Source: an uncultured Gammaproteobacteria bacterium (lineage in GTDB: Bacteria; Patescibacteriota; Microgenomatia; JAMCZE01). From it: a stretch of 64,000 bases of DNA. The stretch is taken from contig CAZNUP010000002.1 in the NCBI GenBank assembly GCA_964576435.1, positions 42,112-106,111 of the forward strand. The letters run 5' to 3'. Below the pieces are notes generated by a model. That model ran no database searches. It was not told the DNA's origin and worked only from the letters and a program-made list of their open reading frames with translations. Shown here one piece after another: positions 2,252 to 50,900 of this stretch; the stretch's first letter is position 1; the number at the start of each line of letters is the position of its first letter. The position numbers and the translations under genes are program-made.

Positions 2252-2290
2252 TTGACACTCCTCCTACTATATTATTAATTATATATATGC
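2252..2290 (+). promoter_or_regulatory. Putative sigma70-like promoter upstream of the giant ORF (TTGACA -35, followed by an AT-rich tatattattaat -10 region)
   Basis: A TTGACA hexamer at 2252-2257 is followed by AT-rich TATATT/TATTAT-like elements. The spacing is ambiguous, so this is a weak call. Confidence 0.2.
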
Positions 2291-2368
2291 AAAATTCCCG
2301 TGACGAGAAATCAAGTTCAAATACTTACTGCAACCTTTATGTTTCACGCAGCCTGAGAGCCTGCATTC

Positions 2369-5300
2369 TTGAACGATAAACTAATTTCAGCTTCGGAATT
2401 AATTAGATTAGCTTCAGAAAGAGGCTTCAGCTTTGGTCGCGGGAACCCGATGAATCGCCTCAGATATTACACAAAGATTGGGCTCATTCCTCATGCTGTA
2501 AGGAAACAGGCTCTTCCTGGACAACCATACACGGTTGGTTATTATCCAGACTACACATTGGATTTGTTACTTAAGATTCAAGGACTTCGCAAGGGTGGGC
2601 AGGATGTCTCTCAGGTTAAAGAACATATGAAGGTTGAGCAGGTTAGAGCTCATGTCAGGTCACAGCTTCCAACAGCTCAAGTTGGTGAAGGCTTAAACTC
2701 AGACAACTTATTGCACGCTTCAGAATATTTGTCCAATAATACACAAAGTTCTAGATCGATATCAAATGATACAGTTTTGGAAACCCAAAATGAAATTACT
2801 GAACTTGGAAATGATTCTGAGAAAAAGAGTGAAAAGAAAATATGGAAGTACGCTATCCCTGTTATACTCCTCTTTTTATTACTTGGTGGATTGGTCATTA
2901 CTGCCTCGAATTCTTTGTGGGGTAAACAATCTTTTTTTCAGATTGCTTCATTGCTAAACAATTCTCACAAGGAAACTGTTGAACTGGCTCAATCTCAAGG
3001 TGAAGTACTTGCGGGCTTTGATGTTAATAAGTTCTTGCAGTTCAATTCGAGGGTGAGATTTCAAAACACGTTTTTGAATCTGTCTGGCGATGAAGTGTCG
3101 ATTGACCAAGATCTGTTGACCACAAGTGAACCAACTTTTGCCACCCTGAACCTAACTGCGGGGACAAATCAGATCGTGCTTGGTGGCAACGGCACATTGG
3201 CTTGGCCAACAATAACAGGTAATCAAACTATATCATTCCCTGATGCTTCTGGAACAGTTTTATTGGCGACGAGCTCAGCAATAACCATCAACACATCGGG
3301 AAATCTTAGTGGTGGAGGAAGTGTGTCGCTTGGGGGGTCAATCACACTCACAGGGAATTCCTCGGGAGTCACAGCCACAACTTCCGCCGGATATATTCCG
3401 ATGATGGAAGCTAATGGTCAATTTGGCAACTCGATGTTGGCACAAAGTGGCGGCAATTTGTATGTGAATGGAACACAAGGCGTGACTTTGCCCAGCGTCT
3501 CCTGTGTTATCACGGAAAACGGCATCGTCACTGGCAGTGCCACATGTCCAACTCTCGGAGTGTCAGGGACACCAAACAGTATTGTTAAGTTTGTGACGTC
3601 GAACACGGTTGGGGATTCGTCAATTTCGGACACAGGAAGTGCAGTGACCATTGCCAATCCATTAACAATTACAACTGGAGGAATCACACTGACTGGATCA
3701 CAAGCTATTGATTCATCCGGAGGAACTTTATCGATTGGAACTAGTGGCCAAACTTCATTGACTCTTGGTAGAAATGCGGCACCAACAATCATTAACGGAG
3801 CGACCATTACTGCGGGACCATTGGTGCTCAACACCACAACCAATGTCGCGACATTTTCGGGACAGGTTGGAGTTGGGGGAGATCTTGATGTGTCAGGTTT
3901 TTATAGAGCAAATGGAGTGCCTGGCGTGAGTTTGGCAACAGCGTCGTGTGTTATTACGACAAACGGAATTGTGACTTCGAGTGCTGCGTGTCCTGGGAGT
4001 GGTTCGGGAGGATCAAAATGGCAACTTAATTCTGGAGTGCTGGCGCCAAATGATGTGACGCAATCATTAGCACTTGGCGGAATTTCCACAGGTTCAGCAC
4101 AAGTTTATTTTAATGCAGTTTCTGGAGATGGGACTTTTGCGGGAGCATTGGCAGCGGCCACACTTAACACAGGGCAAGGAGCAAATGAGCTCTACGCTAT
4201 GAATCAGGATGTCAGAACAAGTGATGCTCCGACGTTTGGAGGTTTGACACTTAGCAATTTAACGACCAACAATGGACTTTTGTACACGAACGGATCGGGA
4301 GTGTTGGCGCAAACCACAGCTGGAACAAGTGGACAATGTTTGGTGGGCAACACTGGGAGTGCACCAAGTTGGAGTGATTGTGGAACAGCAAGTGGAGATG
4401 ATTGGCAAAGAAATGCCGGAGCAATTTCGCCACTTAATGTCACAGACTCTTTGATCATCGGAGGGACGGCAACGAGTTCTGGAAAGTTTCAAATATATGG
4501 AGTCAGTAGCTTGAATCCAGTAGCCAGCATCTCGGCATCTTCTTCAAAAGCCGCCTTTATTGTTGACAACACGGTTGGGGATTTGTTCACAGCTTCTTCA
4601 TCAGGGCTTTCAAGATTTGTGATTAAACAGAATGGTAATATTGGGATTGGGACTAGCAATCCTGGCGGTGCATTTCAGGTTGTTGGAGGAGGAACTTCAT
4701 TTACGTTGAATAGCTCTGGTGTACTTACTTCTCAGTTTAATGTGGCAAACGATATTGTTCCCACAACAGATGCATCTAGGTCTCTGGGTAATAGCAGTAA
4801 TGGTTGGTTTTCCTTATATACTAATCAAATTCATAGCACCAACAGTGAAGATTTGTCTTTAAATTCTTCTGGAACGCAGATTTATGTTTTGGACACGCTA
4901 AATTTTGGTTCTGTATCTACAGATATTATAACTGGTACAAATGAGGATTTGGTCATTACACCGGGAGGAACGGGTAATGTTGGAATAAACACTTCTACAC
5001 CGCAGGCAAAATTCCAAGTTTTTAACTCCTCCAATTCTCAGACCGCTTCAATCTCGGCCGCAAACGGCAAGTCAGCGTTGTTAGTTGATAATACTGTAGG
5101 AGATCTAATCACTGCTTCTTCATCAGGAATAAGTAGATTCACAGTCAAACAAAACGGGGATGTGATCATCAATACTCTTGCCGCGTCAAACGCGGTGACC
5201 TATGTTGACTCCACTGGAAAACTCAATGGAGTGACACCAAATGGATCTTCAATTATGTGTCTAACCCAAGCAACAAGCGGAGCTCCACAATGGAGTGATT

Positions 5301-8300
5301 GTAACTCAGGTGGAGGAATCAGTGGCTCTGGCACTTTGAACTACATTTCTAAATTCACACCTGATGGATCAACACTTGGGAACACTGGACTGTATGAAAC
5401 ATCAGGAGCTCTTGGATATGGAACCATAGCACCACTTGCAAAGCTTGATATTCAAGGTGGAGCAACCACATCTGCAATCGCTTCATTCTCTGGAGCAACT
5501 GGAAAAGCATCTTTGGTGGTGGATAACAGTGTTGGTGATTTGTTCACTGCAAGTTCATCTGGAATGACAAGATTTGTTATTAATCAGAATGGGAACGTCG
5601 GAATTGGAACCAGTAATGCGGCAAACGCACTCGATGTTAAAGGGAATGTTACCGTTCGCGGAAATTCCACAGGAACACCTGGTGGAAGCCAAGGATTGCT
5701 TTTGGGTTACTCCTCCACTGGAAATGTTGGAAGCATTACTTCTATTTATTCAGGGAATTATTTCACCACACTTTCTCTTGTTGCAGCAGAAATAACATTT
5801 AACACTGGAGCAAGTGGTACTGAGCAAATGCGTCTCACTCAGCAGGCAACTCTTGGACTTGGAACAACAGTGCCGCTTGGTAGGCTTGATGTTCGGGGAA
5901 ATTCAACCATTGCCAATTCTGGGACAAATTCAGTGGCGACATTTTCCGGAGCAACGTCGAAAGCAGTTCTTGTTGTTGACAACTCTGGGGTTGGTGACTT
6001 GATTACTGCGTCTTCTTCAGGCATGAGCAGATTCACAGTCAAACAAAATGGTGATGTGATCATTAACTCTCTTGCAGCAGCAAACGCGGTTACCTATGTT
6101 GATTCAACTGGAAAGTTGAATGGAATTACTCCAAATGGCACTGGAACTGCACTGTGTCTGACACAAACATCATCTGGAACTCCAACATGGGCATCGTGTA
6201 ATTCAGGTGGAGGAATTTCTGGTTCAGGAACATTGAATTATATCTCCAAATTCACACCCGATGGATCAACACTTGGGAATTCTTCCATTTTTGACAACGG
6301 GAGTGTGCAAATTGGTGGAGCAACTCCTGTTGCACTGTTCAACATTGGAGCTAACAGTGATGTCAGAATCAATGGAACTGGAGATATCACAGCCAGAACA
6401 TTCAATGGCAACACTATTGCAACTGGATCTGGAAACTTAACGATTTCTGGGACAGCAAATGTTGATCAAGATTTGAGAACCGTTTCTTCACCAACATTTG
6501 CAGGACTGACACTTAGTTCACTGACAACAAACAACGGTCTTTTGTACACCAATGGATCTGGTGTGATTGCTCAAAGCGCTGCTGGTGCAACAGGGGAATG
6601 TTTGATTGGTAACACAGGATCTGCTCCAACATGGAGTTCGTGTTCATCTGCAGCATCTGACGACTGGCAAAGAAACAGTGGGGTACTTTCACCAACAAAC
6701 ATCACTGATTCACTCATTATTGGTGGAACGTCCACTGCTTCTGGAAAGTTCCAGGTTTATGGACTCTCATCACTTAATCCTGTGGCAAGCATCTCAGGTT
6801 CATCAGCAGTCGCTGCTTTAGTTGTTGATAATTCTGCTGGAGATGTGTTCACCGCATCAACATCTGGATTAACTAGATTTGTGGTAAATAAAAATGGAAA
6901 TATTGGAATCGGTACTAGTAACCCAACACGGCCGTTCCATGTTGTGGATGGAAGTTCAGTGATTTACGCTAGCAATAATATTGGCACAACTTTGGCGTAT
7001 GGTACAAGCAGTCTTGATGCCAGGAATGGATTTGTCACTTTAGGAAATAATGCTGGGTCAATAACTTATAACGGCACTGAGTTTTATCCACAAGTTTCGA
7101 ACAATGTAAATATCGGGAGAGCAAGCCTAACTTATAAGAATTTGTATCTAAATAATCTCCAAGTCCTTAACTCAGGAACAACAGCAAATGCTTCTATATC
7201 CGGGTCAACAGCATTTGCTGGTCTTGTTGTTGACAACTCTGGTGTTGGTGACTTGATTACTGCATCTTCTTCAGGGGCCAGTAGATTCACAGTCAAACAA
7301 AATGGTGATGTGGTTATTAATTCTCTTGCAGCAGCAAATGCAGTGACCTATGTTGATTCAACTGGAAAGTTGAATGGAATTACTCCAAATGCAGGAGCCA
7401 TTCAATGTTTGACTCAAACATCTTCTGGAACACCAGTGTGGGCAGCGTGTTCATCTGGTGGAGGATTGTCTGGGTCTGGAACCTTAAACTATATCTCCAA
7501 ATTCACACCAGATGGATCAACACTTGGGAACACTGGGCTGTATGAAACATCAAATGCACTTGGCTATGGAACCATTGCACCTCTAGCTAAACTTGACATT
7601 CAAGGTGGGGCAACAACATCTGCAATTGCTTCGTTCTCTGGATCAACAGGAACAGCTGCTCTGGTTGTTGATAACTCAGTGGGAGATTTATTCACTGCAA
7701 GTTCATCTGGACTTTCTAGGTTTGTGATTAAGCAAAACGGAACTGTTGGGATTGGTTTGAGTGCACCAGGAAACTTACAAATTGGAGTTGATGGTGCCGG
7801 TGCCGCGAACAACTTTACAGCTTATGGAACTACATCTGGAGGAAGGATAGTGATGAATGGAAGCGGCTTATCCAATCCCAGAGGAACTAATAATCTTTGG
7901 CTTAGGGCATCTGATCTGGTCATATCAAACGGAACCATCACTACCGTAAATAGCGATTTAACACTTGCGCCAATGTCAACGTATAACACTGTGATAACTT
8001 CGGGTAATGTGGGCATTGGCAGTGCAACACCCGGAACAACACTCGATATCACTGGGACATTGAGAGCATCAGGAGTCACCACACTTTCCAACTACACCAC
8101 AAACAATGGTCTTTTGTACACCAATGGTTCTGGTGTTGTTGCACAAACTGCAGCGGGATCAACTGGAGAGTGTTTGATTGGCAACACAGGAAGTGCACCA
8201 TCATGGAGTTCGTGTTCATCAGCAGCATCTGATGATTGGCAGAGAAATGCTGGAGTTCTTTCTCCGACAAACATAACTGATTCACTCATTATTGGTGGAA

Positions 8301-11300
8301 CTGCAACGTCTTCTGGAAAGTTTCAAATATATGGAGTCAGTAGTCTGAATCCTGTAGCCAGCATTTCTGCTTCAAGTTCACAAGCTGCATTGGTTATTGA
8401 TAACACAGTCGGAGATTTGTTCACTGCATCTTCGTCTGGACTTACAAGGTTTGTGATTAACCAAAATGGGAACGTTGGAATTGGAACTTCCAACCCAAGT
8501 TATAAACTGGATGTGGTCGGAACGAATATGCAGTTTTGGAATGGTGGGACGGGGAATGGCTTTAATTTTACTACGGCCGCTTCGGGTGGCGATGTAACCT
8601 TAACCGCAACTGGTCCAACTTCAGCTGGAGATTTCATTATTAAACCAGTTAGTACTAGTGGGTCAGATCTGATATTAACTTCGCCAAATGGTATTACCAA
8701 AGTTCGTGGTGGAGACCCGCTCTTAAATATTGAAGAGTCAAATGGCACTTTGCGATATGCTTTCTCGAAAAATACCGCTACTTTTGATTGGGCTGACTAT
8801 CCAGGAGTTTTGACATTTGATACAAATGGAATATCTTACGCTGGGGCGGCTTTGAATTTGGGCACTTCAGATAGCAACTTGGTTGCGTTAAAAACAGGGG
8901 GATCCGAGAGAATGAGAGTTGATACTAATGGCAATATCGGTGTGGGAACTACTGCTCCAATTGGTTTATTAAATGTTTCAAACAAAGCAACCGGAAAGGC
9001 TTTAACTATCCTCAATGAAACTGGAGATCAAAACATTCTTGTTGGCTCAGCTTCAGGAACAACGGAATTTGTGTTTGATCGAACTGGTGGACTGACATTG
9101 ACTGGTCTTGCAGGAAGTGCAAACTCACTAGTGTATGTTGACGCCAATGGAAAACTGACAAACACTGCCGCTGGAACAAGTGGACAGTGTTTGGTGGGAA
9201 ACACAGGAGCACCAGCATCATGGAGTTCGTGCTCAGGAGCAGCTGGAGGACTATTTTGGCAGAGAAATTCTGGAGTGTTAGCACCACAAAACATTTCTGA
9301 ATCACTCGCTATTGGGGGAACTTCCACCAGTTCAGCTCTGGCATATTTTGATGGAGTTAATGGCAATGCACTGCTTCGTGGCGGTCTATCAGTTGCAAGT
9401 TCATCGGGAGCTGCAGCTCTCACAGTTAATCAATCGTCAACTGGAGATATTTTCACAGCAAGTGCAGCGGGAGTTTCAAAATTTGTTATCACAGCGGCTG
9501 GTAACGTCGGGATTGGAACTACAGTCCCTGGGGCAAGCTTGTCCATAAATAATAGCTCAGGAACTAGTGCAGATATTGTTCAACAAGGCACTTCTTTTTA
9601 CGGATTGTTGCGCGGAAATTTAATACGAGGAGGCACCAGCTCCAGTATTTATGGCCAAATCGATCTTTATAACGGCTCCACTGGGGATTTAAATATTATT
9701 CCAAGGGGTTCAAATAACTTTACTGTAGTCACTAATTCTATTGAGCGATTTAGGATTGATGGGAACGGAAATGTCGGAGTGGGAACAACAGTTCCATTGG
9801 CAACATTAAACGTCAAGACAGTTGGAAATACTCAAACAGCTTCTATCTCGGGGACAAGTGGCACAGCAGCACTTCTTGTTGACAATACTGTTGGTGATTT
9901 GTTCACGGCCTCTTCTTCAGGAGCTTCAAGATTCACAGTCAAACAAAATGGTGATGTGATCATTAACTCTCTTGCAGCAGCAAACGCAGTTACTTATGTT
10001 GACTCAACTGGAAAATTGAATGGAATTACTCCAAATGGAACTGGAACTGCACTGTGCCTCACTCAAACTTCAAGTGGAACACCAACATGGGCATCGTGTA
10101 ATTCAGGTGGAGGAATTTCGGGTTCAGGAACACTCAACTATATTTCCAAATTTACTCCAGATGGATCAACACTGGGGAATTCTGGACTGTTTGACACTGG
10201 ATCCGCTCTTTCTTATGGAACAACTAATGCCTTAGCAACTCTGGATATCCGGTCTCAATCAGGTATCACAGGTATTGCGAGTATCTCAGGTAGCACAGCA
10301 CATGCTGCACTGGTTGTCGATAATTCTGGAGTTGGAGATATCTTCACAGCATCCAGTTCTGGTTTGACACGTTTTGTTATACAGCAAAATGGCAATGTGG
10401 CAATTGGTGGGGCAGTGCGACTTGGACAAAATGGCGGAGCAAATGATGTGCTTAATACAGCAGCTGCGATCGGAGCTCCAAGTGGTCAACTCTATTGGGG
10501 TTCACGATATCTGTGCGATTCCACAAACAACTGCGTTGGTGGTGGAGGCGGAGGAGCAATTGGTGGAGGCGGAGTGGCCAACTATATTTCTAAATTTACA
10601 CCTGATGGAAACAATATTGGCAATTCACAACTGTATGACACCGGATCGGCAATTGCCATTGGCACAACATCACCCTTGGCAACTATTGATGTCAGATCTC
10701 AATCAGGTATCACAGGTATTGCGAGTATCTCAGGTAGCACAGCACACGCGGCACTGGTTGTCGATAATTCCGGGGTCGGTGACATTTTCACTGCTTCGTC
10801 AGCGGGACTGGCAAGATTTGTGATTAAGAATAGCGGGAATATTGGAATCGGAACCACAACGACAACTGCTAAATTAACTTTGTTAACTTCAGGTGTAGGT
10901 GATGGATTCACGGCAATTAATTCTTCAACTTTGGGAGCTAATTCTGGAGCCGGGATTGTTGGGAGAACGTCAAGTGATCCAACTGGTGCAGATCAGCGGC
11001 TTGGATTTTATGTATTTGGCAGCAATGGTTCGAACGCAGCTAATTCGGCGGGAATGCTTGGGTATGCTGGCGGAGCCTGGAGTGGCAGTTCAAAACCAGC
11101 ATATTTGACGTTTGAAACAACAGCGGTTGGGTCCACGTCACGGGCAGAACAAATGAGGATTGATGCCAACGGCAACGTTGGAATTAGTAGTTCTGTTCCA
11201 GGAGCGAAACTGGATGTTTTGACCAGCGCAGGAAGCGGACAGACCGCCCTTTTTAGTAATTACGGTACTGGAGTTCCGCTCACGCTAACCAATGGTAGTG

Positions 11301-14300
11301 GATCAACATCAAATGTGTTTTCTGCGACCCGTTTTGGTTCGCAGGTGTTCAGAGTTGGTGGTACCGGCGATTATGCTATGTATGCTTCCCATACGAGTGC
11401 AACCGTTCCTGTTGGATTTATTTATAATTCCGACGTTTCCGGTACTGGGCTAAATATCCTCGGAGCTAATGGGGCTACAGGTAAACTACTTTATGTACAA
11501 TCGTGGGGTTCCACCGATTTACTTACGGTCAAAGGTAATGGGGATGTAATTATGAATGGTGGTAACATTGGAATTGGTTCCGCTTCCCCAATTGGAAAAC
11601 TCAACGTTTCAGGAGCTGCAACTGGAAAAGCTCTCACAATCTTGAATGAAACTGGCGACCAAAACATCCTCGTTGGTTCTGCCTCTGGAGTGACTGAATT
11701 TGTGTTTGACAGATCTGGAGGACTGACTTTGACTGGTCTTTCCGGAAGTGCAAACTCACTTGTGTATGTTGATGCTAATGGGAAACTCACAAACACTGCT
11801 GCGGGAACAAGTGGACAGTGTTTGGTTGGGAACACTGGTTCTCCAGCATCGTGGAGTGATTGTGGAACTGCATCTGGAGATGATTGGCAAAGAAATGCTG
11901 GAGCGTTGTCACCAAAGAATATTTCTGACAGTTTGATCATTGGTGGAACTGCAACATCATCTGGAAAGTTCCAGGTTTATGGAGTCAGTAGTCTGAATCC
12001 TGTAGCCAGCATTTCAGCTTCAAGTTCACAAGCCGCATTGGTTATTGATAATACGGTCGGAGATTTGTTCACGGCAAGTTCGTCTGGACTAACAAGATTT
12101 GTGATCCAGCAGAATGGTAATGTTGGAATTGGATATTCCAATCCTTCAGGTGCAAAATTGGCAATCAATGGAGGGGTCGGAATTGGAACAACAACAGCAA
12201 GTTATGCGCTTGATGTCGAAGGAAATATCAGGTCTAGAAGCACAGGGTATATTGGAACAAATGCAGAAGATCTGGGACTATACTTGGGTCCAGACACTTC
12301 AAGATTTATCTTTGCTCGGTCTGGTGGAACTTTGTCAATTGGTGCAGGTTCTAATGACAGGATAACCCTTCTAAGTGGAGGCAATGTCGGTATCAATTCA
12401 ACAACACCTGGAGCAAATTTTGATGTTACAGGCACAGCACGCATTTCAGGAGTTACAACACTTTCCAACTACACCACAAACAATGGTTTGTTATACACAA
12501 ATGGTTCAGGTGTTATTGCTCAAACTGCTGCTGGTGCAACAGGGGAATGTTTGATTGGCAATACAGGAAGTGCACCATCATGGAGTTCATGTTCAGCAGC
12601 AGCTGGAGGACTATTCTGGCAGAGAAATTCTGGAGTGTTAGCACCACAAAACATTTCTGAATCACTCGCTATTGGGGGAACTTCCACCAGTTCAGCTTTG
12701 GCATATTTTGATGGAGTAAATGGCAATGCACTGCTTCGTGGTGGAGCTTACATTGCATCATCTTCTGGAAAAGCAGCACTTACTGTTAACCAATCATCAA
12801 CTGGAGATTTGTTCACTGCATCTGCAGCAGGCGCATCGAGATTTGTGATTAACAATGTGGGGAACGTTGGAGTGGGAACTAGTAATCCGACCAATAAGTT
12901 GTATGTGGCCGCTGGAGCAATCGCTGCAGGATCAAATGGTGTTTTATTCTCGGGTGATATTTCGGGGGGGAATATGTATTCAGCTCAACTCGGAGTCTTT
13001 AACTCTGGTTCTGCAAATGCTCCAACGAGATTGCAATTTGGAGATTTGACCGCTGGGGAAGGGACAGCTGTTATTGAATCAGCTCGTACCGGCTCACTTA
13101 CTGGCTATTTAGCTTTCCAAACTCGCAACACAAATTATGTTGAAGCAATGAGGATTAATTCTGATGGGAACGTTGGTATTAACACGACACTTCCTGTTAA
13201 TAAACTTGATGTGAGTGGTTCGGCAGCCTTTGGTTCGTATGCGGGAGCTAACTCTGCCCCATCAAATGGCCTAATTGTGAGCGGGAACGTCGGTGTGGGG
13301 ACGACGACACCAGGAGGAATTCTTGAAGTGTCTGGACACCTGACAGGTTGGAATCCGTTTGTATTGTTCGAAGACACAGGTGATCCGGGTGCTGGGGCAA
13401 CGACGCTTGAGATCAAAAATTCTCAGTCTGATTTAAAAATTCGCGCTTACGGTTCAACAGCTCCAAGTTATCTGGCCAATGCGGTTGGTTTGTGGTCCGA
13501 CGCAAACGACATGATTAACGGTGTTGGTTCAGGGAAGAAAATTTATTTGGCTTCAAATGATAATTATGCAAACCCTGAAGTTACAATTGCCGCCGGGAAT
13601 GTTGGAATTGGGAGTGTCACTCCAGGCTTTAAATTTGATGTTAATGGAAACACTAATTCAACGGCATATTATGTTGGTGGAGTGGCTGGTGCAGCAAGTG
13701 TCAGTAACTCATGTGTTAATGTCACAAACGGCATTGTTACATCAGCTGGAACATGCGCATTAGCAGGTAATCAGTGGCAACTCAATTCAGGTGTGATTGC
13801 ACCATATGATGTTACACAAAGTGTTGCTATTGGTGGGACAGCAACAAGTTCAGCACTTGTATATTTCAACGGAGTCAATGGCAATGCACTGCTTCGTGGT
13901 GGACTATCAGTTGCTTCATCATCTGGTGCAGCAGCTCTCACTGTTAACCAATCATCAACAGGGGATATCTTCACAGCTTCTGCTGCTGGAGCTTCAAAGT
14001 TTGTGATTACTGCAGCGGGGAACGTTGGGATTGGCAGCAGTGCTCCTGGCAATAAGTTTGTGGTAAATGGTGGAGCTTTGGTTGATGGGGGATCGGTTGG
14101 AGTTATTAAGGGAGATAATTCCACTGGCAGCTTTACTGCACATCTTAATCTCTTGAATAACGGGACAGCGGGAAATGTAGTTCGACTCGGCTTTGGGGAT
14201 GAAACTGCGGGAGAAGGCGTCGCGGCAATCGAGTCAGCAAGAACCGGGTCACAGCAAGGCTATCTGTCGTTCCGAACAAGAAACGCCACGATGAATGAAG

Positions 14301-17300
14301 TTGGGAGATTTGACCACACGGGCAATTTGGGGATTGGTTACAGCTCAAGTCTTAATGGCAAATTAGTGGTTAACGGCAACGTCGGAATTGGAACTTCAAC
14401 AGCCAATGCGGCACTGGAAGTTGTTGGGACGACTGGCATGCTCCTTAAAGCCAACAGTTCATCAGCCGGCTTCACAATTAAAGATCGGGCATCGGTGCCA
14501 GGAGATCAGTTGATTTTTGAAGGGAATACAGGAAATTACACTGTCTTTAATGTTGGCACCAATGGGGCAACTTCCGGAAGTCCAAAGCAATCTGGTTTTG
14601 CTTTGTGGACAGTTGACCCTGATAGCACTGACGATGCAACTCAGTTCCAAGTGCAGTCTAATCCCACATATGGTGGTGTGGTGTTCACCCAAAAGTTTGG
14701 TTCGGGAGCACAAGGTGACTATCCAATTTCGTTGCAGTCAGTTTGGGATCAAGTCTCGACACCAAGTCAACTTGTGCTCGGAACTGGTGGCAATGTTGGG
14801 GTTGGCAGTTCAAGCCCAGGGAATAAGCTTGATGTCACTGGAACTTTGAGGGCGTCGGGCGTGACCACTTTGTCAAACTACACTACTAATAATGGACTGC
14901 TTTACACCAACGGTTCCGGGGTCATTGCTCAAACTGCCGCCGGCTCAACAGGGCAGTGTTTGGTGGGGGCAACAGGATCTGCACCTTCCTGGGCAGCGTG
15001 TGCAGCTGGATCTAGGTGGCAGTTAAACAGCGGAGTGCTTGCCCCAAATGATGTAACACAATCTTTGGCAATAGGGGGAACGGCAACGGGTTCAGCTCTG
15101 GCATATTTTGATGGAGTGAACGGAAATGCACTTCTTAGAGGTGGACTTTCAGTTGCATCATCTTCTGGAAAAGCAGCTCTCACAGTTAATCAGTCAAGCA
15201 CTGGGGATTTGTTCACAGCAAGTGCAGCAGGTGCATCGAGATTCGTGATTAATAATGCTGGCAACGTCGGAATTGGAACGAGCAACCCAACACAAAAATT
15301 AGTGGTTGGTGGTGCAACAAGTGAACTCGAGCTGTATTCGGATTCGGATTTGGGCACTATTGATTCACGAGCTTTGGGTGGGTCATCGTCAAGATGGCTC
15401 GTTATTAATCCAAGCGGTGGCAACGTCGGCATCGGAACGACGGGAGTTAGCAATTCTAAATTCTTGGTGTATGGCGATAGTGGGGCATCGGCGACAAATA
15501 GTTTGGCCATTTTTGGCGATAACCTTGGCATGAGCACCGATGTTAATCGAGCCAAAGTAACCATTGGCAACACTGATGGAATTTCTGAACTCCTATTAGG
15601 GCAAGACAGCACTCACGGGCTGCTGTTTAATTGGAACTATAACGCAACGGCTGGAAACGCGTATGGCGTTTTGGAAACATATGGTGGCAATAATCCGCTA
15701 GCTTTGCAAACAGCTGGTGGTAATGTTGGCATTGGCAGCATCACGCCGGGCTATAAACTCGATGTGAATGGCAACACCAATTCAACTGGGTATTATGTTG
15801 GTGGAGTGGCTGGAGCATCCGTCACAGGACAGTGTGTCACAACAACAAACGGAATTGTTACAGCCAGTGCAACATGTCCAGCAACTGGCGGATCAAAGTG
15901 GCAGCTTAATTCGGGAGTCCTTGCTCCAAATGATGTGACACAAAGTTTGGCAATTGGTGGAACAGCAACTTCAAGCGCACTCGTTTATTTTGACGGAGTC
16001 AATGGCAATGCACTTCTTCGAGGTGGTCTTTCAGTGGCATCATCATCTGGAAAAGCAGCTTTGACAGTTAATCAATCAAGTACTGGAGATATTTTCACAG
16101 CAAGTGCAGCAGGAGCTTCAAAGTTTGTTATTACTTCAGCTGGGAATGTTGGAGTAAATACTACAAACCCCGCAGCATTGTTGGAGATCCATAGCTCGAA
16201 TAATTATTCTAACAGTGGACTAGTATTGACTAATAATGTGGGAGTAGTTAGTGGAGGGTTATCCCTGGGTGGCAGTGGAGAAGTGATATTTAGTTCATCA
16301 AATCTAAATTATTTGTCTATTCAAGCAGGGGGTTTTGGAATTGCTAACAGTATTAATGATTCTTATAGCGGTTTGCTTCAAGTCCCAAATGGTTTGCAGG
16401 TTAATCCCGCTTCGGCTAGTTCTATCGGACTTTCTGTGTTTGGAGAAAGTGGACAAACAGCTAATTTGTCAAACTGGTATGACTCCTCCAGTAATTTGCT
16501 GTTTTCTGTTAATAATCGTGGGTATATTGCTAATGAAGGCAACATAACTGGGCTAAATAATATTCCTGGTTCATTGTCTGTGAATGACATTTTATCTGTG
16601 GCTGCAACATCCTCTGCTTATCCGGCATTTAGACTTAATGCTACAACGGGGCAAGCAGCGATGGTTATTAATCAAGATGATCCGGGTGGAGATTTGTTCA
16701 CTGCCTCGGCAGCTGGTTCACCAAAAGTGGTCATTAGTAATGTTGGGTTCTTGGGAGTTGGCACTACGACACCAGGTGGAATTGGACATTTTAGACAGGA
16801 TGCTAATGGTGGAGTTAGAGTTTATGTTGACAATGCAAGCAATGGTTCGTCGGCTTCAGTCGGGATCGCGCTTCGTGCAACACTCTTGACTGGTGATGGA
16901 ACATTTAACATCGCTAAATATGGATCAGGCTACAGTGATAACCCAAATTGGACAAATGCAGGAGTTATATCCGCCTGGAACGATGTAGCAGGAATAAGAA
17001 TAAGTTCATTTAATGGCCTGGCTTTTGAGACCGGAAATAATGCAGTGAGAGGTTCTTGGACTAATACTGGAAATTTGGGCATAAACACAACCGCACCTCT
17101 TTCTCTTTTTGATGTGCGCGGGGTGAACGGGACAAATGCATATTCTGGTATTTCCTCGGTGGCAACAATTTCTGGCCAAACTTCATTTGCAACTTTGGTT
17201 GTTGATAATTCTGGGGTGGGAGATTTGTTTACAGCTTCTTCCTCTGGCCTTACAAGATTTGTAATTAATCAGAACGGAAATATTGGTATTGGCACAACAT

Positions 17301-20300
17301 ATCCGACTGCAAAATTAGCTTTTGGAGCAGCAACGACGGCGGCGGGGGGAATTGATTTTGGAGGAGATGTGAGTTTGTATCGTTCAGCTGCCGATATATT
17401 AAAGACCGGAGATACATTTTCAATTAGATCTACGATTGGAATCACTGCAACTGGTCCAGCTCTTATTGTCGGCGGCGACGGATTGTCAGATGGTGTCGGA
17501 AATGTTGGCATTAACAAAGGAAGTATTGAGTATTACAGTAGTGGTTATGGACTTAACCTTGGTAGGCCGAATATTGGACCGATTGAATCTATAATTAGCC
17601 GTTCAACTGATGGTTCAACTGGTTACATTGATATCGGAAATAATACTGGTTGGACCGCAACAACACTGCAAGCTTCTGGTGGCAACGTTGGAATCGGCAC
17701 GACCGTGCCCATGGCAACACTGGATGTCCGAAGAAGCAATGGCACAATTGCGACGGCATCAATTTCCGGAGCAACGAGCTTTGCAGGCCTGGTTGTTGAT
17801 AATTCTGGGGTGGGAGATTTGTTTACAGCTTCTTCATCTGGCCTTACAAGATTTGTAATTAATAATGTTGGAGATGTGTTGCCTGGGACTGATGACGCTC
17901 AAGATCTGGGATCCAACGCACTCAGGTGGAGAGATTTGTATCTCGGATCAGACACGTTGCATATTGGCACGTCAACCTCAGATGAATATACGTTAAGCTA
18001 TAACACTGCATCAAACTATCTTGGGTTTAATGTCAATGGCAGTGGGAATTCGGAAGTGGTTTTTGATGCAAATGGGAATGTTGGAATTGGCAGCATCACA
18101 CCTGGATCAAAACTTGATGTTGCCGGAAGTATATCGATGTCTGGGTCACAAACGTTGACGTCAACAGGGACACTTGGAATTGGAACAGCCAATCAAACAG
18201 CCCTCACACTCGGTCGACCAGGAGCACCAACTGTGATTGATGGGTCGACGATCACAATTAATGGAGCACTTATTAATGGAGGAGGAAGTGCAACAATTTC
18301 AGGGACATTGGGGCTTGGTGGAGATGCTTCGTTCTCAGCAAAACTGACATTGGACTCAACAACACCTCAGATTAATGCAACAAACAACAGACCGCTGCAA
18401 CTTGGATTTATGAATACAGGGTCGGTTCAGTTTATGAATGCTTCTAATTACGTTGATGCAAACAACAATCTTTATATTAATGGTGTATTAATTTCTGGAT
18501 CCGCAGTCCAGGGTCATTGGCAGAGGAATAGTGGGGCTGTGGCACCAACTAATATCACTGACTCGCTGCTTGTTGGTGGGACGTCAACAGCGTCTGCTAA
18601 GTTCCAAGTTTATGGTTTGTCTGCATTGAATCCAGTGGCGTCAATTTCGGGTTCAAGTTCCAAGGCAGCACTTATTGTGGATAATACAGTCGGTGATTTA
18701 TTTGCTGCGAGTTCATCAGGATTGTCAAGGTTTGTCATTAATCAAAATGGCAACGTCGGAATTGGAACGACAAATCCCGCAGCACTTTTTGCAGCTGGGC
18801 AGTCGAATCAGTTTAGAGTTAATTCAGCTGGAACCGCATATATAACAAATGCAGCAGGGTCTATATCGTTAGCATCCTATATCGATGATGAGTGGGGAAC
18901 TTTTATTACGACTATTGGTGGAAGTGGGCAAAATTGGAAAATTTCTCCTAATCCAGGAAATAGAACAGCGATTGCATATAGAAATTTCCAGATCGCAGAT
19001 TCGTATAATCCATTCCAGTTTACTTTTAGAACAACGGTGGAGGATGGCAGCGGTGCAAATAACTTAACATTGTCAAGCTATTTCGAACCGTGGCAAACAA
19101 ATCGAGGTAATATGGCGGCATTATATGTTCCATACACTGTTGACGCAGCTGCCTCGCAAAATGGCATTGTTAGAGGGATTTATGTTGACTCAACTGAAAC
19201 CAGCCTGAACGGGTTTACAAATAATTTGATTGATCTACGCGTTGGTGGGGTGCCAAAGTTTGTTGTTGGAGCATCTGGCACTTCGACTACGGCCACGGTG
19301 TCTGGAACAACCAGTTCTGCAGCACTTGTGGTTGATAACTCGGGAGTTGGGGATGTGTTTAGTGCCAGCGCGGCTGGGGTGTCGAGGTTTGTTGTTACAA
19401 GTGGTGGAAATATTGGAATTGGCACCAACATCCCTGGATATAAACTGCAAGTTGCAAGTGGGCAAATTGCTGTTGCTGATGGGTCTGCTGGAACTCCTTC
19501 ATATAGTTTCTTTAATGATCCTGACAATGGCATGTTTAGACCTGGACCAAACACAATTGGCTTAAGTGCTGGGGGATCACAGGTTTTTTATGGAACGTTG
19601 GGGGGATCAGTGGTTTCAGGCTATATGGTTGGGGATGCAAGCCCGCTAACCCTTGGAAACAATAATGATTGGGGAGTGGGTGAGCAAATGCAGTTTGATT
19701 ATGCTGATGATAGCACTGTGGTTTCTCGAATTGGCTCGAATCAACATGCATCGGGAGATTATAGTTTGGATTTTTACACTACAACTGATGGTGGGTCAAG
19801 TTTGCCAGCGAGACTGCGAATTGGCCATGATGGAAACATTGGCATAAACACAACTGCACCTCTGTCACTATTGGATGTTCGAGGAATAAGTGGAACGAAT
19901 GCTTATTCAGGCATATCCTCGGTGGCAACAGTTTCTGGAAAAACATCGTTTGCAGCAATGGTTGTTGACAACTCAGGAGTAGGAGACCTGTTTACTGCCT
20001 CATCATCAGGCCTGTCTAGGTTTGTGATCTCACAAAATGGGAATATTGGGATTGGGACAACAGTTCCTGATGCTAAGGTTACAATTCTTGGAGGAAATGA
20101 CATTAAATTTACCGGAGTGTCTGCTCAAAATCAGGCATCGTTCATTGGTAGTAATGCCACGGATGATTTCAGTATTTTGGCTGGAATTGGGAACGGCAAG
20201 ACATTGACCATTGGAGCAAACGGCAGTTTGACTTCATTGAATAGAATAATTTTGTCGTCCACGGCGCTGCAAATTTTGCCTGGAAACACCAATGTTGGTA

Positions 20301-26638: not shown

Positions 26639-27286
26639 ATGAGTTATCCACAGGATGTTGATAAAAATAATGACCTTCAATTTGCGACGCCATGGCGTCG
26701 TTTTTTACCATTCATTGTGGGTGGAGTGGGTGTGGTTTTGATTGGTGCAGGAATATTTGTAAATATGTGGAAACAGCAAGAAAGTGAAAGTGTGGAAACA
26801 AGTGAAGATGTTTCACCACAAGCTACTGAATTTGTGAAAGGCGTGAATAATGTGAAGATTATTAAAGTTGATATTTCTGGCGCCGTCATAAAACCTGGAC
26901 TCGTTGAAATACCAGCTGATTCCCGCGTTCAAGATGTGCTCATTTCCGCAGGTGGGATTGATGCGAAAGCTGACCGAAACTATATATCAAGATCTATCAA
27001 TCTCGCTCAGCCAGTTCAAGATGGAATGAAAATATATATTCCATTTGAAGGTGAGTCTGTTAGTGCCAATACAGAGTCAGGTGGAGGTGCGGGAGGACAG
27101 AGTAGTAGTTTTAATATTAATAGTGCGTCACAGGCTAAGCTTGAAGAACTTCCTGGTGTTGGACCTGTTACAGCTAAGAAGATTATCGATGGACGGCCCT
27201 ATGGTGACGTATCTGAACTTAGTACTAAGAAGGTTGTGTCGAAGGCGGTGTTTGACAAAATTAAAGACCAAGTGGCTACATATTAA
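26639..27286 (+). CDS. comEA: Competence protein ComEA (helix-hairpin-helix DNA-binding/uptake protein)
   Basis: It has an N-terminal TM helix and a C-terminal LEELPGVGPVTAKKIIDGRPYGDVSEL HhH motif. Confidence 0.75.
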   Translation: MSYPQDVDKNNDLQFATPWRRFLPFIVGGVGVVLIGAGIFVNMWKQQESESVETSEDVSPQATEFVKGVNNVKIIKVDISGAVIKPGLVEIPADSRVQDVLISAGGIDAKADRNYISRSINLAQPVQDGMKIYIPFEGESVSANTESGGGAGGQSSSFNINSASQAKLEELPGVGPVTAKKIIDGRPYGDVSELSTKKVVSKAVFDKIKDQVATY

Positions 27287-28459
27287 ATGCTCAAAATATA
27301 TCTGATCCTCTTATGCTTACTCTTAATTCGAGTTTATACCTTTAATAACTTTAACTTCAGTAATAGCGACACTCAGGATATTAGGGGCAGGTTGACCTCT
27401 GAACCCACCGTTTATAAGGGTAACTATATATTAGATGTCGAAGGCAAGAGAGTTTATGTGACTATTAATAATATATATCACTATGGTGACTATGTAGTCA
27501 TAAGAGATCATGAAGCGACCAAAATTCGAACTGGCCAACCTCAAAGTAATATTTTTCTAACATTCAGACAATCTGTGCAAAAGGTTTATAAAACAATTCT
27601 TCGACCTAGAGAGGCAGACATAATTTCTGGAATGGTTCTTGGAGCTGATGATATGGGAGACAAGTTAAAAAATGAGATGGCAAATGCTGGTTTGATACAT
27701 TTAGTAGTAGCATCAGGTATGAACCTTACTTTGGTAGGTGGATTTGTATTTGCTCTTTTCACTGGCCTTCACTTACATCGACGCTCGGTTGTACTGATAG
27801 CTAGTGGTGCGGTAATTTGTTACGCTGCAGTAGCTGGATTTAACCCACCTATTGTCCGGGCCTTGATCATGTTTGAAGCAGTCATGCTGGGAGGACTGGT
27901 GGGTCGAAAGAGTGGTGGCCTATTTGCATTAATAGCAGCAGGATATTTAATGTTATGGGTTAATCCATCACTTACGACAAGCTATTCATTTTTATTGTCT
28001 TTTGCTTCTATGATGGGGCAGATTTTCCTTAGCACTATCAAACTTTCTTTGCCAGCAGTCATTGAAGCCTGTGTCCTTGTAGTTTTACAGAATTTATTGG
28101 CTTTAGTGTTTACAGCACCCATTATTTTGATTGGATTCAGTCGTTTTTCACCGATTTCCATAATTTCTAACCTCTTTATCACTTGGATGGTTGAGCCTCT
28201 AATGATAGTAGGGGGCTTTGCGGGAATTATTGGACTTGGATCGATGGAACTTGCTAGATTCCTACTTATACCAGTCAGTTTATTATTAGAATTTTTCCTT
28301 TTTATTGTTGATGTGTTTGGGGGGAGTGAAAAATATGTCGTCCATGTTGAGGGATTTAATATCTTTATAGCAATTGGTTACTATTTGCTTCTTGGGGCAT
28401 CAATATATAAAATACGGCATCATGGCGAAGAAAACAGTTCAAACACAAATGCCAATTAA
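27287..28459 (+). CDS. comEC: ComEC/Rec2-family competence channel protein (short form, no beta-lactamase domain)
   Basis: Polytopic membrane protein that follows comEA. It has the ComEC DUF4131 / competence-domain-like hydrophobic profile. Confidence 0.55.
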   Translation: MLKIYLILLCLLLIRVYTFNNFNFSNSDTQDIRGRLTSEPTVYKGNYILDVEGKRVYVTINNIYHYGDYVVIRDHEATKIRTGQPQSNIFLTFRQSVQKVYKTILRPREADIISGMVLGADDMGDKLKNEMANAGLIHLVVASGMNLTLVGGFVFALFTGLHLHRRSVVLIASGAVICYAAVAGFNPPIVRALIMFEAVMLGGLVGRKSGGLFALIAAGYLMLWVNPSLTTSYSFLLSFASMMGQIFLSTIKLSLPAVIEACVLVVLQNLLALVFTAPIILIGFSRFSPISIISNLFITWMVEPLMIVGGFAGIIGLGSMELARFLLIPVSLLLEFFLFIVDVFGGSEKYVVHVEGFNIFIAIGYYLLLGASIYKIRHHGEENSSNTNAN

Positions 28460-37671: not shown

Positions 37672-37743
37672 TCGGGGTGCAGGGAATTGAACCCTGTGTC
37701 TCACGGTCCCGAACCGTGCGTGTTACCGATGCACCACACCCCG
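37672..37743 (-). tRNA. tRNA-Pro (anticodon CGG)
   Basis: Manual cloverleaf: acceptor CGGGGUG/CACCCCG with C1-G72 and A73 (typical of bacterial tRNA-Pro), anticodon arm CACGG-UUCGGGA-CCGUG, T-arm CAGGG-UUCAAUU-CCCUG. No encoded CCA. Confidence 0.7.
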
Positions 37744-37792: not shown

Positions 37793-37864
37793 GCCCTCGT
37801 AGCTCAACGGATAGAGCAATCCCGTCCTAAGGGAAAGATAACAGTTCAATTCTGTTCGAGGGTA
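37793..37864 (+). tRNA. tRNA-Arg (anticodon CCU)
   Basis: Manual cloverleaf: acceptor GCCCUCG/CGAGGGU, D-arm GCUC-AACGGAUA-GAGC, anticodon loop GUCCUAA, T-arm AACAG-UUCAAUU-CUGUU, discriminator A. Confidence 0.7.
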
Positions 37865-47946: not shown

Positions 47947-50900
47947 TTAATTTGAATTAGGATTTAAATTCATACGTAAAGTGTACCAGGATTGTCCACC
48001 CCAGAGTTCTAGATTTCCTGTATCTGTATTTAGACCTAGTGTTCCTGATTTTGGTTTCATTGGCCTCGTTGATGTTGTCCAGGTGGCCATTTTGGTTAGG
48101 CCAAGTAGGCCGGAACCTCTTGGGGTAACTTTACCCAGCATTGATGGTTGATACTTTGGAGCAGTTGGCCTATTAACCAACAGTTCTAACTCAGCTGGCG
48201 TTAAATTACCACCCCTTAAGAATGCATCAGTTGTGTTGGAGATTGTATATGAGGGGATTGACGATTCACTGGGACTGGCACTGCCAGTTGGGGAGAAGCT
48301 TAGTGAAATACTAATCGATTGGCTTATTGAACCTGTTGGACTTGCTGAAGCAGATTCAGATGATGATGGAGATGGGGAGAAGCTACTTGATGGTGAAGTA
48401 GATGAAGACTCCGAGAGTGATGAACTTTCAGAAATAGATGTTGAGAGTGAAGCTGATGGTGAAAGACTGGCACTTGGTGAGACTGAAGCAGATGTGCTAC
48501 TTGACTCTGAACCTGATAAAGATTCTGATGCACTTTCTGAAAGTGAGGACGATGGACTTTGGCTAGCACTTTGTGACAAAGAAGAACTTTGTGAGAGTGA
48601 TGAACTTTCAGAAAGAGAAGCGGATGGAGAAAGTGACGCCGAGGTACTTCCTGACGTGGAGCTACTTATAGAAGCTGAGGTGCTTTGGGAAACAGAAGAA
48701 GATTGTGAAATTGATGAGGACTCCGATAAACTACTTGACTGTGAGAGTGAAGATGATTCTGACAAACTAGCTGAAGGTGACAAGCTTGCACTTGGTGAAG
48801 TTGATGCAGAAATACTTGGAGAAATTGAAGAACTTATTGAAGCGGATGTACTTTCTGAAACAGAACTACTTGGAGAAAGTGAACTTGACTGGGAAATAGA
48901 AGCTGATGGTGATTGACTTGCTGATGGTGACAATGAGGATGATTCCGACAAACTTGCTGATGGGGAAATCGAGGCTGACGGAGAAAGAGACGACGATGTA
49001 CTTCTACTAGTTGAGGAACTTGTTGATGCAGAAATACTAGACGAGGTTGACGTGGATGGAGAAACTGATTGTGATTCTGACAAACTACTAGATGGTGAGA
49101 GTGATGAACTTGGTGACAAAGATGCTGATGGAGAAATAGAAGCACTGGGTGAGATTGATGCTGATGGAGATGTGGAAGCTGAAACACTAGCACTAGTTGA
49201 AGCTGAAACTGATGCGGAAGTACTTGCTGATGTTGAGGAACTTGGTGATAGGGATGCCGAACTACTTGCTGAAGCAGATCTTGATGCAGAGGATGAACTA
49301 CTTGCTGAAATTGAAGATGACGGGGAAAGACTTGCGCTTGGTGATATAGAAGATGATGGAGAAAGAGACGCTGATGGTGAAAGGGATGCTGATGGAGAAG
49401 TTGATGATGATGGTGAAAGAGATCTGGAAGCACTGGAACTTGTTGAAGATGAAACTGAAGCAGAAGTGCTTGCTGAAGTTGATGAGCTTGGCGAAATTGA
49501 GGCAGAAGGAGAAGTGGATGATGAAGGAGATAGAGATGACGAAGGTGAAAGGCTTGCACTTGGAGAAAGTGATGCTGACGGAGAAGTAGATGCCGATGGT
49601 GATAGGGAGCGCGATGCACTAGCTGATGTTGAAGCACTTTGTGAAGCCGATGTGCTTGCTGAAGTGGAACTACTTGGTGATTGCGATGCGGATGGTGAGA
49701 GTGATGCAGATGGAGAAGTTGATGATGATGGGGAAAGTGACGCAGATGGTGAGATTGATGCGCTTGGTGATGTTGATGAGCTTGGACTTTGAGATGCAGA
49801 CGCACTGGCACTAGTTGAGGCAGAGGTTGACGCTGAACTACTTGCTGAAACAGACGAACTTGGACTTTGAGAAGCAGATGGAGAAATGGATGATGAGGGT
49901 GAAACACTGGCGCTTGGTGAAAGCGATGCTGATGGTGAAACAGATGCCGATGGTGAGAGAGAGGAAGAAGCACTTGCGCTTGTTGAAGCTGAAACGGAGG
50001 CTGACGAACTTGCTGACACGGATGAACTTGGTGAGACTGAAGCTGACGGAGAAACAGATGATGAAGGTGATAATGACGAACTAGGTGATTGTGATGCTGA
50101 TGGGGAAAGGGATGCACTTGGTGACTGTGAGGCAGAAGGGGAAACTGATGCAGAGCTACTTGCTGATGTTGAAGATGAAACAGATGCAGAACTACTTGCG
50201 GAGGTTGATGATGAGGGTGAAATCGATGCCGATGGGGATAAACTAGAGCTTGGTGAAGTACTAGATGATGGACTTAATGAAGCTGATGGTGAAACTGACG
50301 CTGACGGGGAGACTGAGGCTGATGGTGAAAGAGAACTTGATGCACTAGCTGATGTCGACGCACTTGTTGATGCAGAACTACTGGCAGAAACGGAGGAACT
50401 TGGTGACTGAGAAGAAGAAGGTGAGACTGAAGCAGACGGAGATGTTGATGATGATGGGGAAAGTGATGCAGATGGTGAGATTGATGCACTTGGTGAAATT
50501 GAAGATGATGGCGAAAGGGAACTAGATGTACTGGCACTAGTTGAGGCAGAGGTTGACGCTGAACTACTTGCTGAAACAGACGAACTTGGACTTTGAGAAG
50601 CAGATGGAGAGGTGGAAGAACTTGGCGATGTTGAGGAGGATGGAGATAAACTTGCTGAAGGTGAAAGCGAAGCACTAGGAGAAGTGGATGCAGATGGTGA
50701 CAAAGATGATGATGCACTAGCTGATGTTGAAGCACTTACTGAAGCAGATGTACTTGCTGAAATAGAACTTGAGGGACTTAAACTTGCGGATGGTGAGACA
50801 CTCGAGCTTGGTGATAAAGATGCACTTGGTGACAAACTTGCTGATGGGGAGACACTTGAACTTGGAGATTGTGATGCTGATGCACTGGCACTAGTTGAAG

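Follow-up and report, generated by a model that had tools for sequence, protein, structure and literature searches.

We analysed a 64,000-nucleotide stretch of contig CAZNUP010000002.1 (assembly GCA_964576435.1, lineage Microgenomatia), here called the window, in which a single giant gene encodes a protein of 6,464 amino acids (aa). The protein begins with a winged-helix domain of the MerR superfamily (the head), its translation starts at a TTG codon and the head is tethered to the membrane; in these three points, taken jointly, we have very high confidence. Genes of the same head family lie beside a conserved palindrome, and the evidence as a whole tilts modestly towards a complete chain in which the membrane-tethered head binds DNA and regulates its own gene.

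A sequence-only reading of this DNA had proposed a MerR-like domain fused upstream of a membrane anchor, and had named a profile search and a structure prediction as checks. Both agree with the proposal, as do a structural search and the single transmembrane helix described below. The structure was modelled with AlphaFold 2 (AF2) on a 48-sequence alignment of the head domain (A2), which also served as the family profile, and the model is confident (predicted local distance difference test, pLDDT, 94.7; predicted template modelling score, pTM, 0.85). It contains strand β1 (residues 5-7), helix α1 (8-17), a Gly-rich loop (18-26), helix α2 (27-36), a wing (44-60, with strands at 44-47 and 55-60) and helices α3 (63-75) and α4 (80-99). 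The order β1-α1-α2-wing-α3-α4 is that of the MerR DNA-binding topology and places the domain in the MerR superfamily at the level of fold. The top 20 Foldseek matches in the PDB are all MerR-family proteins (probability 0.85-1.0, mostly at least 0.95), with E-values of only about 1e-2; a match to GlnR (4r4e) has a root-mean-square deviation of 2.3 Å. Compared with solved structures, the A2 profile matches Bacillus megaterium MerR (4ua1) at E = 2e-8, and also the MerR-family structure 3gpv (8e-5) and GlnR/TnrA, in alignments that span helix α2, the wing, α3 and α4. Several relatives exceed the Pfam cut-off for MerR_1 (for example P0027 with 29.1 bits and P0043 with 29.0 bits), and the window protein alone has weak N-terminal matches to NmlR and CueR in NCBIfam.

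The likeness to the MerR family (MerR, CueR, BmrR, HiNmlR and GlnR/TnrA) extends from the winged-helix topology and the α3-α4 pair to the RYY motif on α2 and the wing Arg, both of which are retained across the family of heads. The best-conserved polar residues (N29, R30, R32, Y33, Y34, K36, H42, R45 and K46) lie on α2 and the wing, the parts with which MerR proteins contact DNA. The recognition helix hardly varies between subfamilies or among all the ectodomain types, and the domain carries a mean net charge of about +6. The head differs from canonical MerR domains in that a conserved nine-residue Gly-rich loop, GFxFGxGxP (G19, F22, G23, G25, P27), replaces the tight turn between α1 and α2; among the 48 sequences G23 is invariant and G19 nearly so. 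Its wing is also longer. The long antiparallel coiled-coil dimerisation helix (α5) of classical MerR proteins is missing, the last helix being that of residues 80-99, as it is from GlnR and TnrA, the minimal MerR forms; no C-terminal effector region for metal, drug or redox signals follows the domain. Further differences are the membrane tether and a candidate 15-bp operator of 7-1-7 form outside the promoter spacer. Because it has neither effector domain nor long coiled coil, and because no operator lies in the promoter spacer, the head is not a classical ligand-sensing, DNA-untwisting MerR activator.

The start codon decides whether this fold exists at all in the protein. The only canonical start 5' of the helix-turn-helix (HTH) is the TTG at 2369, with an in-frame TGA at 2354-2356, and the protein read from it begins LNDKLISASELIRLASERGFSFGRGNPMNRLRYYTKIGLIPHAVRKQ...GYYPDYTLDLLLKIQGLRKGG. 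An ATG at 2450 is codon 28 and falls at the beginning of helix α2; a start there would remove strand β1, helix α1 and the Gly-rich loop of the AF2 model. The position of Met28 is V or N in the closest homologues, P0001 and P0002, which keep I6, E10, L11, I12, A15, G19, F20, F22, G23, G25, N26 and P27. Upstream of the TTG lies the box CAGCCTGAG, which is invariant in the leaders of the window gene, of L010 (the locus that encodes P0001), of L011 and of two genes in L001, in each case ahead of a TTG start. This box is probably the ribosome-binding region; the corresponding 12-mer occurs once in the window. The public gene call P0003 (6,437 aa), which is of this very protein, begins at ATG 2450, and P0006 is likewise called from the equivalent internal Met. 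Both calls are probably truncated, because residues 5-27 are conserved among homologues, the TTG and the box recur, and the fold needs β1 and α1. The same conservation and fold uphold the earlier view that the TTG is needed for the HTH and that ATG 2450 would cut into it.

Between head and membrane, the linker ends with EKKSEKKIWK directly before the helix, which is the only strongly hydrophobic segment of the giant protein. Of the 150 best representatives of the family, 105 extend for 80 residues or more beyond the domain, and in 104 of these a hydrophobic helix lies within 200 residues of it (median gap 35 aa). Lysines and arginines are more numerous before this helix than after it (family means 3.7 before and 2.0 after; 79 proteins have more of them before the helix, 13 have more after it). 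Given this bias and the mean net charge of the head, the predicted topology is one in which the head is cytoplasmic and the N-terminus inside, a placement that the sequences support. A cytoplasmic domain of DNA-binding type and at least one membrane helix are thus found on one polypeptide, the combination that characterises transmembrane regulators.

Membrane-tethered MerR domains had been called rare in the sequence-only reading. A survey of 11,337 genomes lists 50,302 transmembrane transcription regulators (PMC10269533), and its supplement counts 386 MerR, 350 MerR_1 and 151 HTH_17 domains. Because of the MerR and MerR_1 counts, we regard tethered MerR domains as uncommon but documented; their rarity is only relative, and in the family described here the tether is the rule. 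By fold the head belongs to the MerR superfamily, and by architecture the protein belongs among the transmembrane transcription regulators. Like ToxR, CadC and TcpP, it has an N-terminal cytoplasmic domain of DNA-binding type, a single helix and an outer region. Regulators of that type mostly pair a small sensor domain with an HTH of the OmpR or another type, whereas here the outer part can be a fibre-like protein of 6,000 residues or almost nothing, and the head is a CPR-specific subfamily of its own (CPR, Candidate Phyla Radiation).

To what extent is the head a relic? When 1.84 billion representative proteins were searched with a profile, 363 relatives of the head emerged at E <= 1e-3 and 179 at E <= 1e-10. 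Their named sources are Microgenomates, Gottesmanbacteria, Shapirobacteria, Parcubacteria, WWE3 and Saccharibacteria, and the databases call them 'hypothetical protein' or 'MerR family transcriptional regulator'. The smallest are minimal head-plus-helix proteins of about 145 aa with a short tail behind the helix, a further class has 220 aa, and the largest protein has 6,464 aa. Thirteen proteins carry two or three copies of the head; no second copy was found in the window or in the loci of about 5 kb. The head is 65-68% identical among the window protein, P0230 (Gottesmanbacteria) and P0002. Outside the head, P0002 has no other match to the window protein and P0230 has one weak match (31% over 103 residues). 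Beyond the head, the protein is less conserved. Such identity of heads on unrelated ectodomains indicates that head and helix are a conserved, shuffled module of CPR bacteria and that the head is under strong purifying selection; it contradicts the earlier suggestion of a DNA-binding relic. We found no description in the literature, of which our coverage was incomplete, of the head family, of its link to tailspike-like giants or of the palindrome.

The ectodomain can also occur with another head. In L001 the gene after atpC (17356-20535) encodes a giant that is homologous to the window protein (40% identity over about 600 aa, plus repeats), and it begins with a canonical MerR HTH of another type (PF00376, 55.5 bits), with a membrane helix behind it. 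This other head is closest to the HTHs of IS607-type recombinases and to small MerR-plus-helix proteins. In L005 a head of 112 aa (P0160, 8001-8339) overlaps the next open reading frame (ORF; 8309-9688), which encodes a membrane helix and ectodomain, at a Lys/poly-A run. The two probably belong to a single gene that a frameshift or an assembly error has divided, and some 'short' family members in databases may be fragments of such split genes.

Between the promoter and the start codon of the giant gene lies the palindrome TTCCCGTGACGAGAA, of which the perfect form is TTCCCGTGACGGGAA; it is the only such site in the window, even at two mismatches. Similar sequences lie upstream of family genes in L001, L002, L003 and L005. 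In L001 it is the family-type gene, encoding P0002, that has the palindrome, and the giant with the other head, which keeps the CAGCCTGAG box and a TTG start, is without it. The first few loci served to define the motif, and 80 further metagenome loci, fetched afterwards, served to test it. Scored as TTCCCG-N3-CGGGAA with at most one arm mismatch in 74 non-redundant loci (428 kb), it has 49 sites within 800 nt of a family gene start (0.44 per kb) and 8 elsewhere (0.025 per kb; binomial p = 3e-21). The enrichment persists in non-ORF DNA, both in all loci (1.71 per kb near family gene starts and 0.31 elsewhere, p = 2e-7) and in those fetched after the motif had been defined (1.76 and 0.53 per kb, p = 9e-4).

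The dyad also keeps fixed distances from promoter elements. In the giant and mid-size genes the order is cTTGACA, 17 nt, -10, 11-14 nt and the dyad, which falls at about +5 to +20. In the subfamily of 148-220 aa the dyad comes after the gene's own stop, with 6-10 nt between it and the TTGACA of the following gene, which encodes a conserved Wzy_C/TPR membrane protein. Where this second gene lies apart from the family gene (L009, L043), the dyad stays with the Wzy_C/TPR gene. In L004 and L006, which are WWE3-type loci, the dyad reads TTC CCG TAA, Phe-Pro-stop. Sites of a third group precede a TTGACA by 24 nt. Many sites are upstream of -35 elements and so outside the transcript of that gene. Position 7 is T in 46 of the 57 sites and position 9 is A in 44, and the symmetry is therefore 7-1-7, running through what would be the loop of an RNA hairpin. 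Single-arm G-to-A changes, which break sense-strand pairing, number 18, against 8 wobble-preserving C-to-T changes, a limited comparison in that the sites were preselected at no more than one mismatch. Because of this symmetry, the G-to-A excess and the sites upstream of -35, we favour a putative DNA operator for a symmetric binder; an RNA hairpin was considered and is less likely on the same three grounds. On the minus strand at 2435-2445 of the window, the codons for the conserved G-R-G-N-P loop read GGTCGCGGGAACCCG, containing the half-site-like CGCGGGAA; this is probably a coincidence of codon choice.

The promoter elements and dyad of the giant gene come in the order seen in its relatives. 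The TTGACA reported in the sequence-only reading does stand at 2252, and this is 117 nt before the TTG. A consensus scan of the giant-gene leader called no promoter with 16-18-nt spacing, and no dyad lies inside the spacer at 2258-2276. A MerR-style promoter, with a dyad in a spacer of 19-20 bp, had been another check named in that reading; it was rejected, as the relatives have 17-nt spacers and the conserved dyad comes after the -10. Two other candidate operators, AT-rich low-complexity palindromes near 2268-2288 and TTTTTCAAAA-N15-TTTTGAAAAA at 2190-2224, are not conserved and were discarded. A second type of dyad is present 5' of the family's own genes in small subfamilies (L004 at about 7975-7991, the equivalent in L006 and L007; L034, L039, L072 and others). 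In the WWE3 subfamily it reads TTCTAGTT-A-AACTAGAA and ends 3 nt before an extended -10, with its centre near -24, a MerR-like position; its other form is TTCTAR-N5-YTAGAA with its centre near -33. These genes appear to be nearly leaderless, their ATG lying 6-15 nt after the -10.

Table 1. Features of the giant gene and its leader (positions in the window)
Feature	Position	Strand	Basis or remark
-35-like hexamer TTGACA of the probable promoter	2252..2257	+	sequence; same element order in relatives
Best -10 candidate AATTAT, weak and uncertain	2277..2282	+	sequence; 19-nt spacer, AT-rich region
15-bp palindrome TTCCCGTGACGAGAA, candidate operator	2295..2309	+	leader comparison; family consensus TTCCCGT-N-ACGGGAA
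Invariant leader box CAGCCTGAG	2349..2357	+	12-20 nt before TTG; five aligned leaders
Giant gene	2369..21763	+	TTG start, 6,464 codons plus stop, one uninterrupted frame
MerR-superfamily winged-helix domain, aa 4-99	2378..2665	+	Pfam, family profile, AF2, Foldseek
Internal ATG (Met28), rejected alternative start	2450..2452	+	homologue comparison
Low-complexity cytoplasmic linker, aa 100-159	2666..2845	+	sequence; Lys-rich juxtamembrane end
Single transmembrane helix (signal anchor), aa 160-182	2846..2914	+	hydropathy score 2.48
Extracytoplasmic Gly/Ser/Thr/Asn-rich repetitive region, about 6,280 aa	2915..21760	+	internal repeats, homology to other giants
Peptidase_S74, aa 6163-6227	20855..21049	+	Pfam E = 9e-12, 45.5 bits vs cut-off 22

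How might head and palindrome work together? Translation from TTG 2369 gives a protein whose first 100 or so residues fold as a basic MerR-superfamily winged helix in the cytoplasm, joined by a linker of about 60 residues and one N-in helix to an extracellular region of about 6,280 residues. The tethered head would bind DNA from the membrane, with the 7-1-7 palindrome TTCCCGT-N-ACGGGAA as its probable target. We infer this pairing because the DNA-contact residues are conserved, because recognition helix and palindrome are both nearly invariant, and because regulator genes commonly adjoin their own binding sites. In the giant gene the palindrome lies about 13 nt after the -10, a position typical of repressors, which suggests that the gene is negatively autoregulated, its transcription responding to how much of the protein has been inserted. 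The motif may likewise be the target of other family members, either in front of their own genes or at the promoters of neighbouring envelope genes, where sites upstream of the -35 suggest activation. Of the earlier suggestion that the domain might regulate its own gene or its neighbours, self-regulation is plausible, given the conserved palindrome in the gene's own leader.

Several points weigh against this proposal. Taken alone, the window protein stays below the Pfam cut-offs for MerR (19.1 bits, cut-off 28.2) and MerR_1 (17.7 bits, cut-off 21.6), with E about 1e-3. A site lies within 800 nt in only 40 of the 74 loci, and 8 of the 57 sites are elsewhere. The palindrome implies a dimer, yet no long dimerisation helix is predicted; the 9-bp half-site spacing is short for MerR-type dimers, and the S74 domain at the C-terminus speaks for a trimer rather than a dimer. 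Longer RNA hairpins can form from the arms in L003 and L031. The palindrome could be bound by another regulator, and its conservation may be due in part to common descent of a promoter-plus-head cassette.

The alternative that survives best, which we nevertheless judge unlikely, is that the head is a protein-binding adaptor. In this case a re-purposed HTH would bind a cytoplasmic partner (cytoskeletal, secretion or division) instead of DNA, and the palindrome would belong to another regulator. Arguing for it, the head is always membrane-tethered, has neither long coiled coil nor effector domain, and is joined to many unrelated ectodomains. A documented precedent exists in RodZ, whose cytoplasmic HTH binds MreB (PMC6946637). 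RodZ is a bitopic protein in which one helix joins this HTH to an outer domain; the family members of 150-290 aa are of similar size and RodZ-like in layout, and in L001 the gene for P0002 lies two genes after mreB. RodZ differs in that its HTH is XRE-type, whereas the head is MerR-type by fold and profile. Counter to the adaptor reading, what the family conserves is the motif by which MerR proteins contact DNA, together with the wing Arg, on a strongly basic domain. In addition, the family genes are accompanied by a specific palindrome, and no conserved partner gene was seen across loci.

A little less probable still is a purely structural tether between DNA and membrane, which would bind DNA without regulating and hold the nucleoid or a locus at the membrane in the manner of RacA or Noc, for example to aid co-transcriptional insertion of the product of a 19-kb message. 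RacA of Bacillus subtilis is a chromosome anchor whose MerR-like winged helix holds DNA at the cell envelope. RacA itself is soluble, reaches the membrane via DivIVA, has a coiled coil and binds GC-rich ram sites, whereas the head is tethered to the membrane directly; RodZ and RacA are the nearest functional alternatives. The conserved DNA-contact residues, the basic domain and the existence of minimal head-plus-helix proteins would all suit such a role, and a near-invariant recognition helix over all ectodomain types suits one shared DNA target. The fixed distances between palindrome and promoter (11-14 nt where it follows the -10, 6-10 or 24 nt where it precedes the -35) point instead to transcriptional control, and the sites are few, one in 64 kb.

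We consider it improbable that the head is an inert remnant, preserved structurally, with the palindrome a 5' RNA hairpin or the site of another factor. The dyad does lie at the predicted 5' end of the transcript in many loci, longer hairpins are possible in the two loci named above, and double-compensated variants (TTCTCG..CGAGAA) exist. Against this stand the conservation of the head relative to the remainder of the protein, the excess of pairing-breaking changes within its stated limit, the symmetry that reaches into the 'loop' and the many sites upstream of -35. Translation from ATG 2450, for which the two public calls and the weakness of TTG as a start codon could be cited and which would produce no complete HTH, is hardly credible, given that residues 5-27 are conserved and Met28 is not, that relatives keep TTG starts and the upstream box, and that the confident fold requires β1 and α1.

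Returning to DNA binding and autoregulation by the tethered head, a broader extension is possible, although we hold it only tentatively and think it rather doubtful. Surface proteins of CPR bacteria may be wired to the chromosome, their tethered heads reading one shared palindrome at the promoters of giant-fibre and envelope genes, so that an inserted or host-engaged protein would report to transcription without a soluble regulator. In cells this small the nucleoid would always adjoin the membrane.

The ectodomain is homologous to those of the giants P0006, P0027 and P0037 and of the L001 giant. Its sole solid Pfam match is the Peptidase_S74 domain near its end, and the Pfam search found no domains in the middle region of the giant. 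Endosialidase and tail fibres have Peptidase_S74 as their self-cleaving intramolecular chaperone. It also forms the end of the giants P0017, P0027 and P0037, and P0065 ends in K1-lyase_C. By analogy with tailspikes, such an end suggests a trimeric surface fibre. The likeness to phage tailspike and tail-fibre proteins consists of the Peptidase_S74 C-terminus and, in relatives, of K1-lyase_C or T4 gp36-like pieces; the giant differs in being cell-encoded and in having an N-terminal membrane anchor and a head of DNA-binding type.

Looking beyond the gene itself, the giant gene comes after the last three genes of the F-ATPase operon (gamma, beta and epsilon; 31-2105). Family genes adjoin this operon in three loci (window 1-2105/2369, L001 12502-17071 and L005 321-4789), and the small head-plus-helix subfamily adjoins dprA/comM/comEA/comEC in L004, L006, L007 and L009. 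The F-ATPase and dprA/com neighbourhoods may represent conserved synteny rather than evidence of function. Homologues of comEA and comEC lie at 26639-28459 of the window, about 5 kb downstream of the giant gene, and the gene order comEC, ArgRS, M16 peptidase and PEGA is common to the window and L001. The window most probably derives from a Microgenomates-like CPR bacterium.

An RNA-like structured element of about 90-125 nt lies 20-100 nt upstream of a family gene in L005 (7840-7948), and is also found in L016, L018, L033, L037, L041, L042, L048, L051, L061, L066, L071, L073, L078 and L081. Its closing stem of 11 bp, AGAAGGCCCGC...GCGGGCCTTCT, encloses variable inner hairpins, and a U-rich tail comes after the stem. 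Five of the 11 closing pairs show compensatory changes, and the element lies between the promoter-plus-dyad and the gene start. It has no Rfam match and is not present in the window. The element could be an attenuator or a small RNA. In the window the only Rfam matches are two divergent tRNA genes, at 37672-37743 (minus strand) and 37793-37864 (plus strand). A 1,329-aa ORF at 47947-51936 (minus strand) consists almost wholly of Ser/Ala/Pro/Thr repeats and has no Pfam match; this region has a GC skew of 0.40 and a higher GC content than its surroundings.

CPR bacteria have tiny genomes in which few regulators can be recognised, and attachment to host cells is thought to be mediated by their giant surface proteins. 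With the family described here, the transmembrane regulators gain a distinct MerR-type branch. The results also correct public gene calls that start at an internal ATG, as well as labels that name membrane proteins of 2,000 residues simply 'MerR family transcriptional regulator'. In organisms that are mostly uncultured, a conserved head with a matching palindrome would offer a concrete and testable regulatory circuit.

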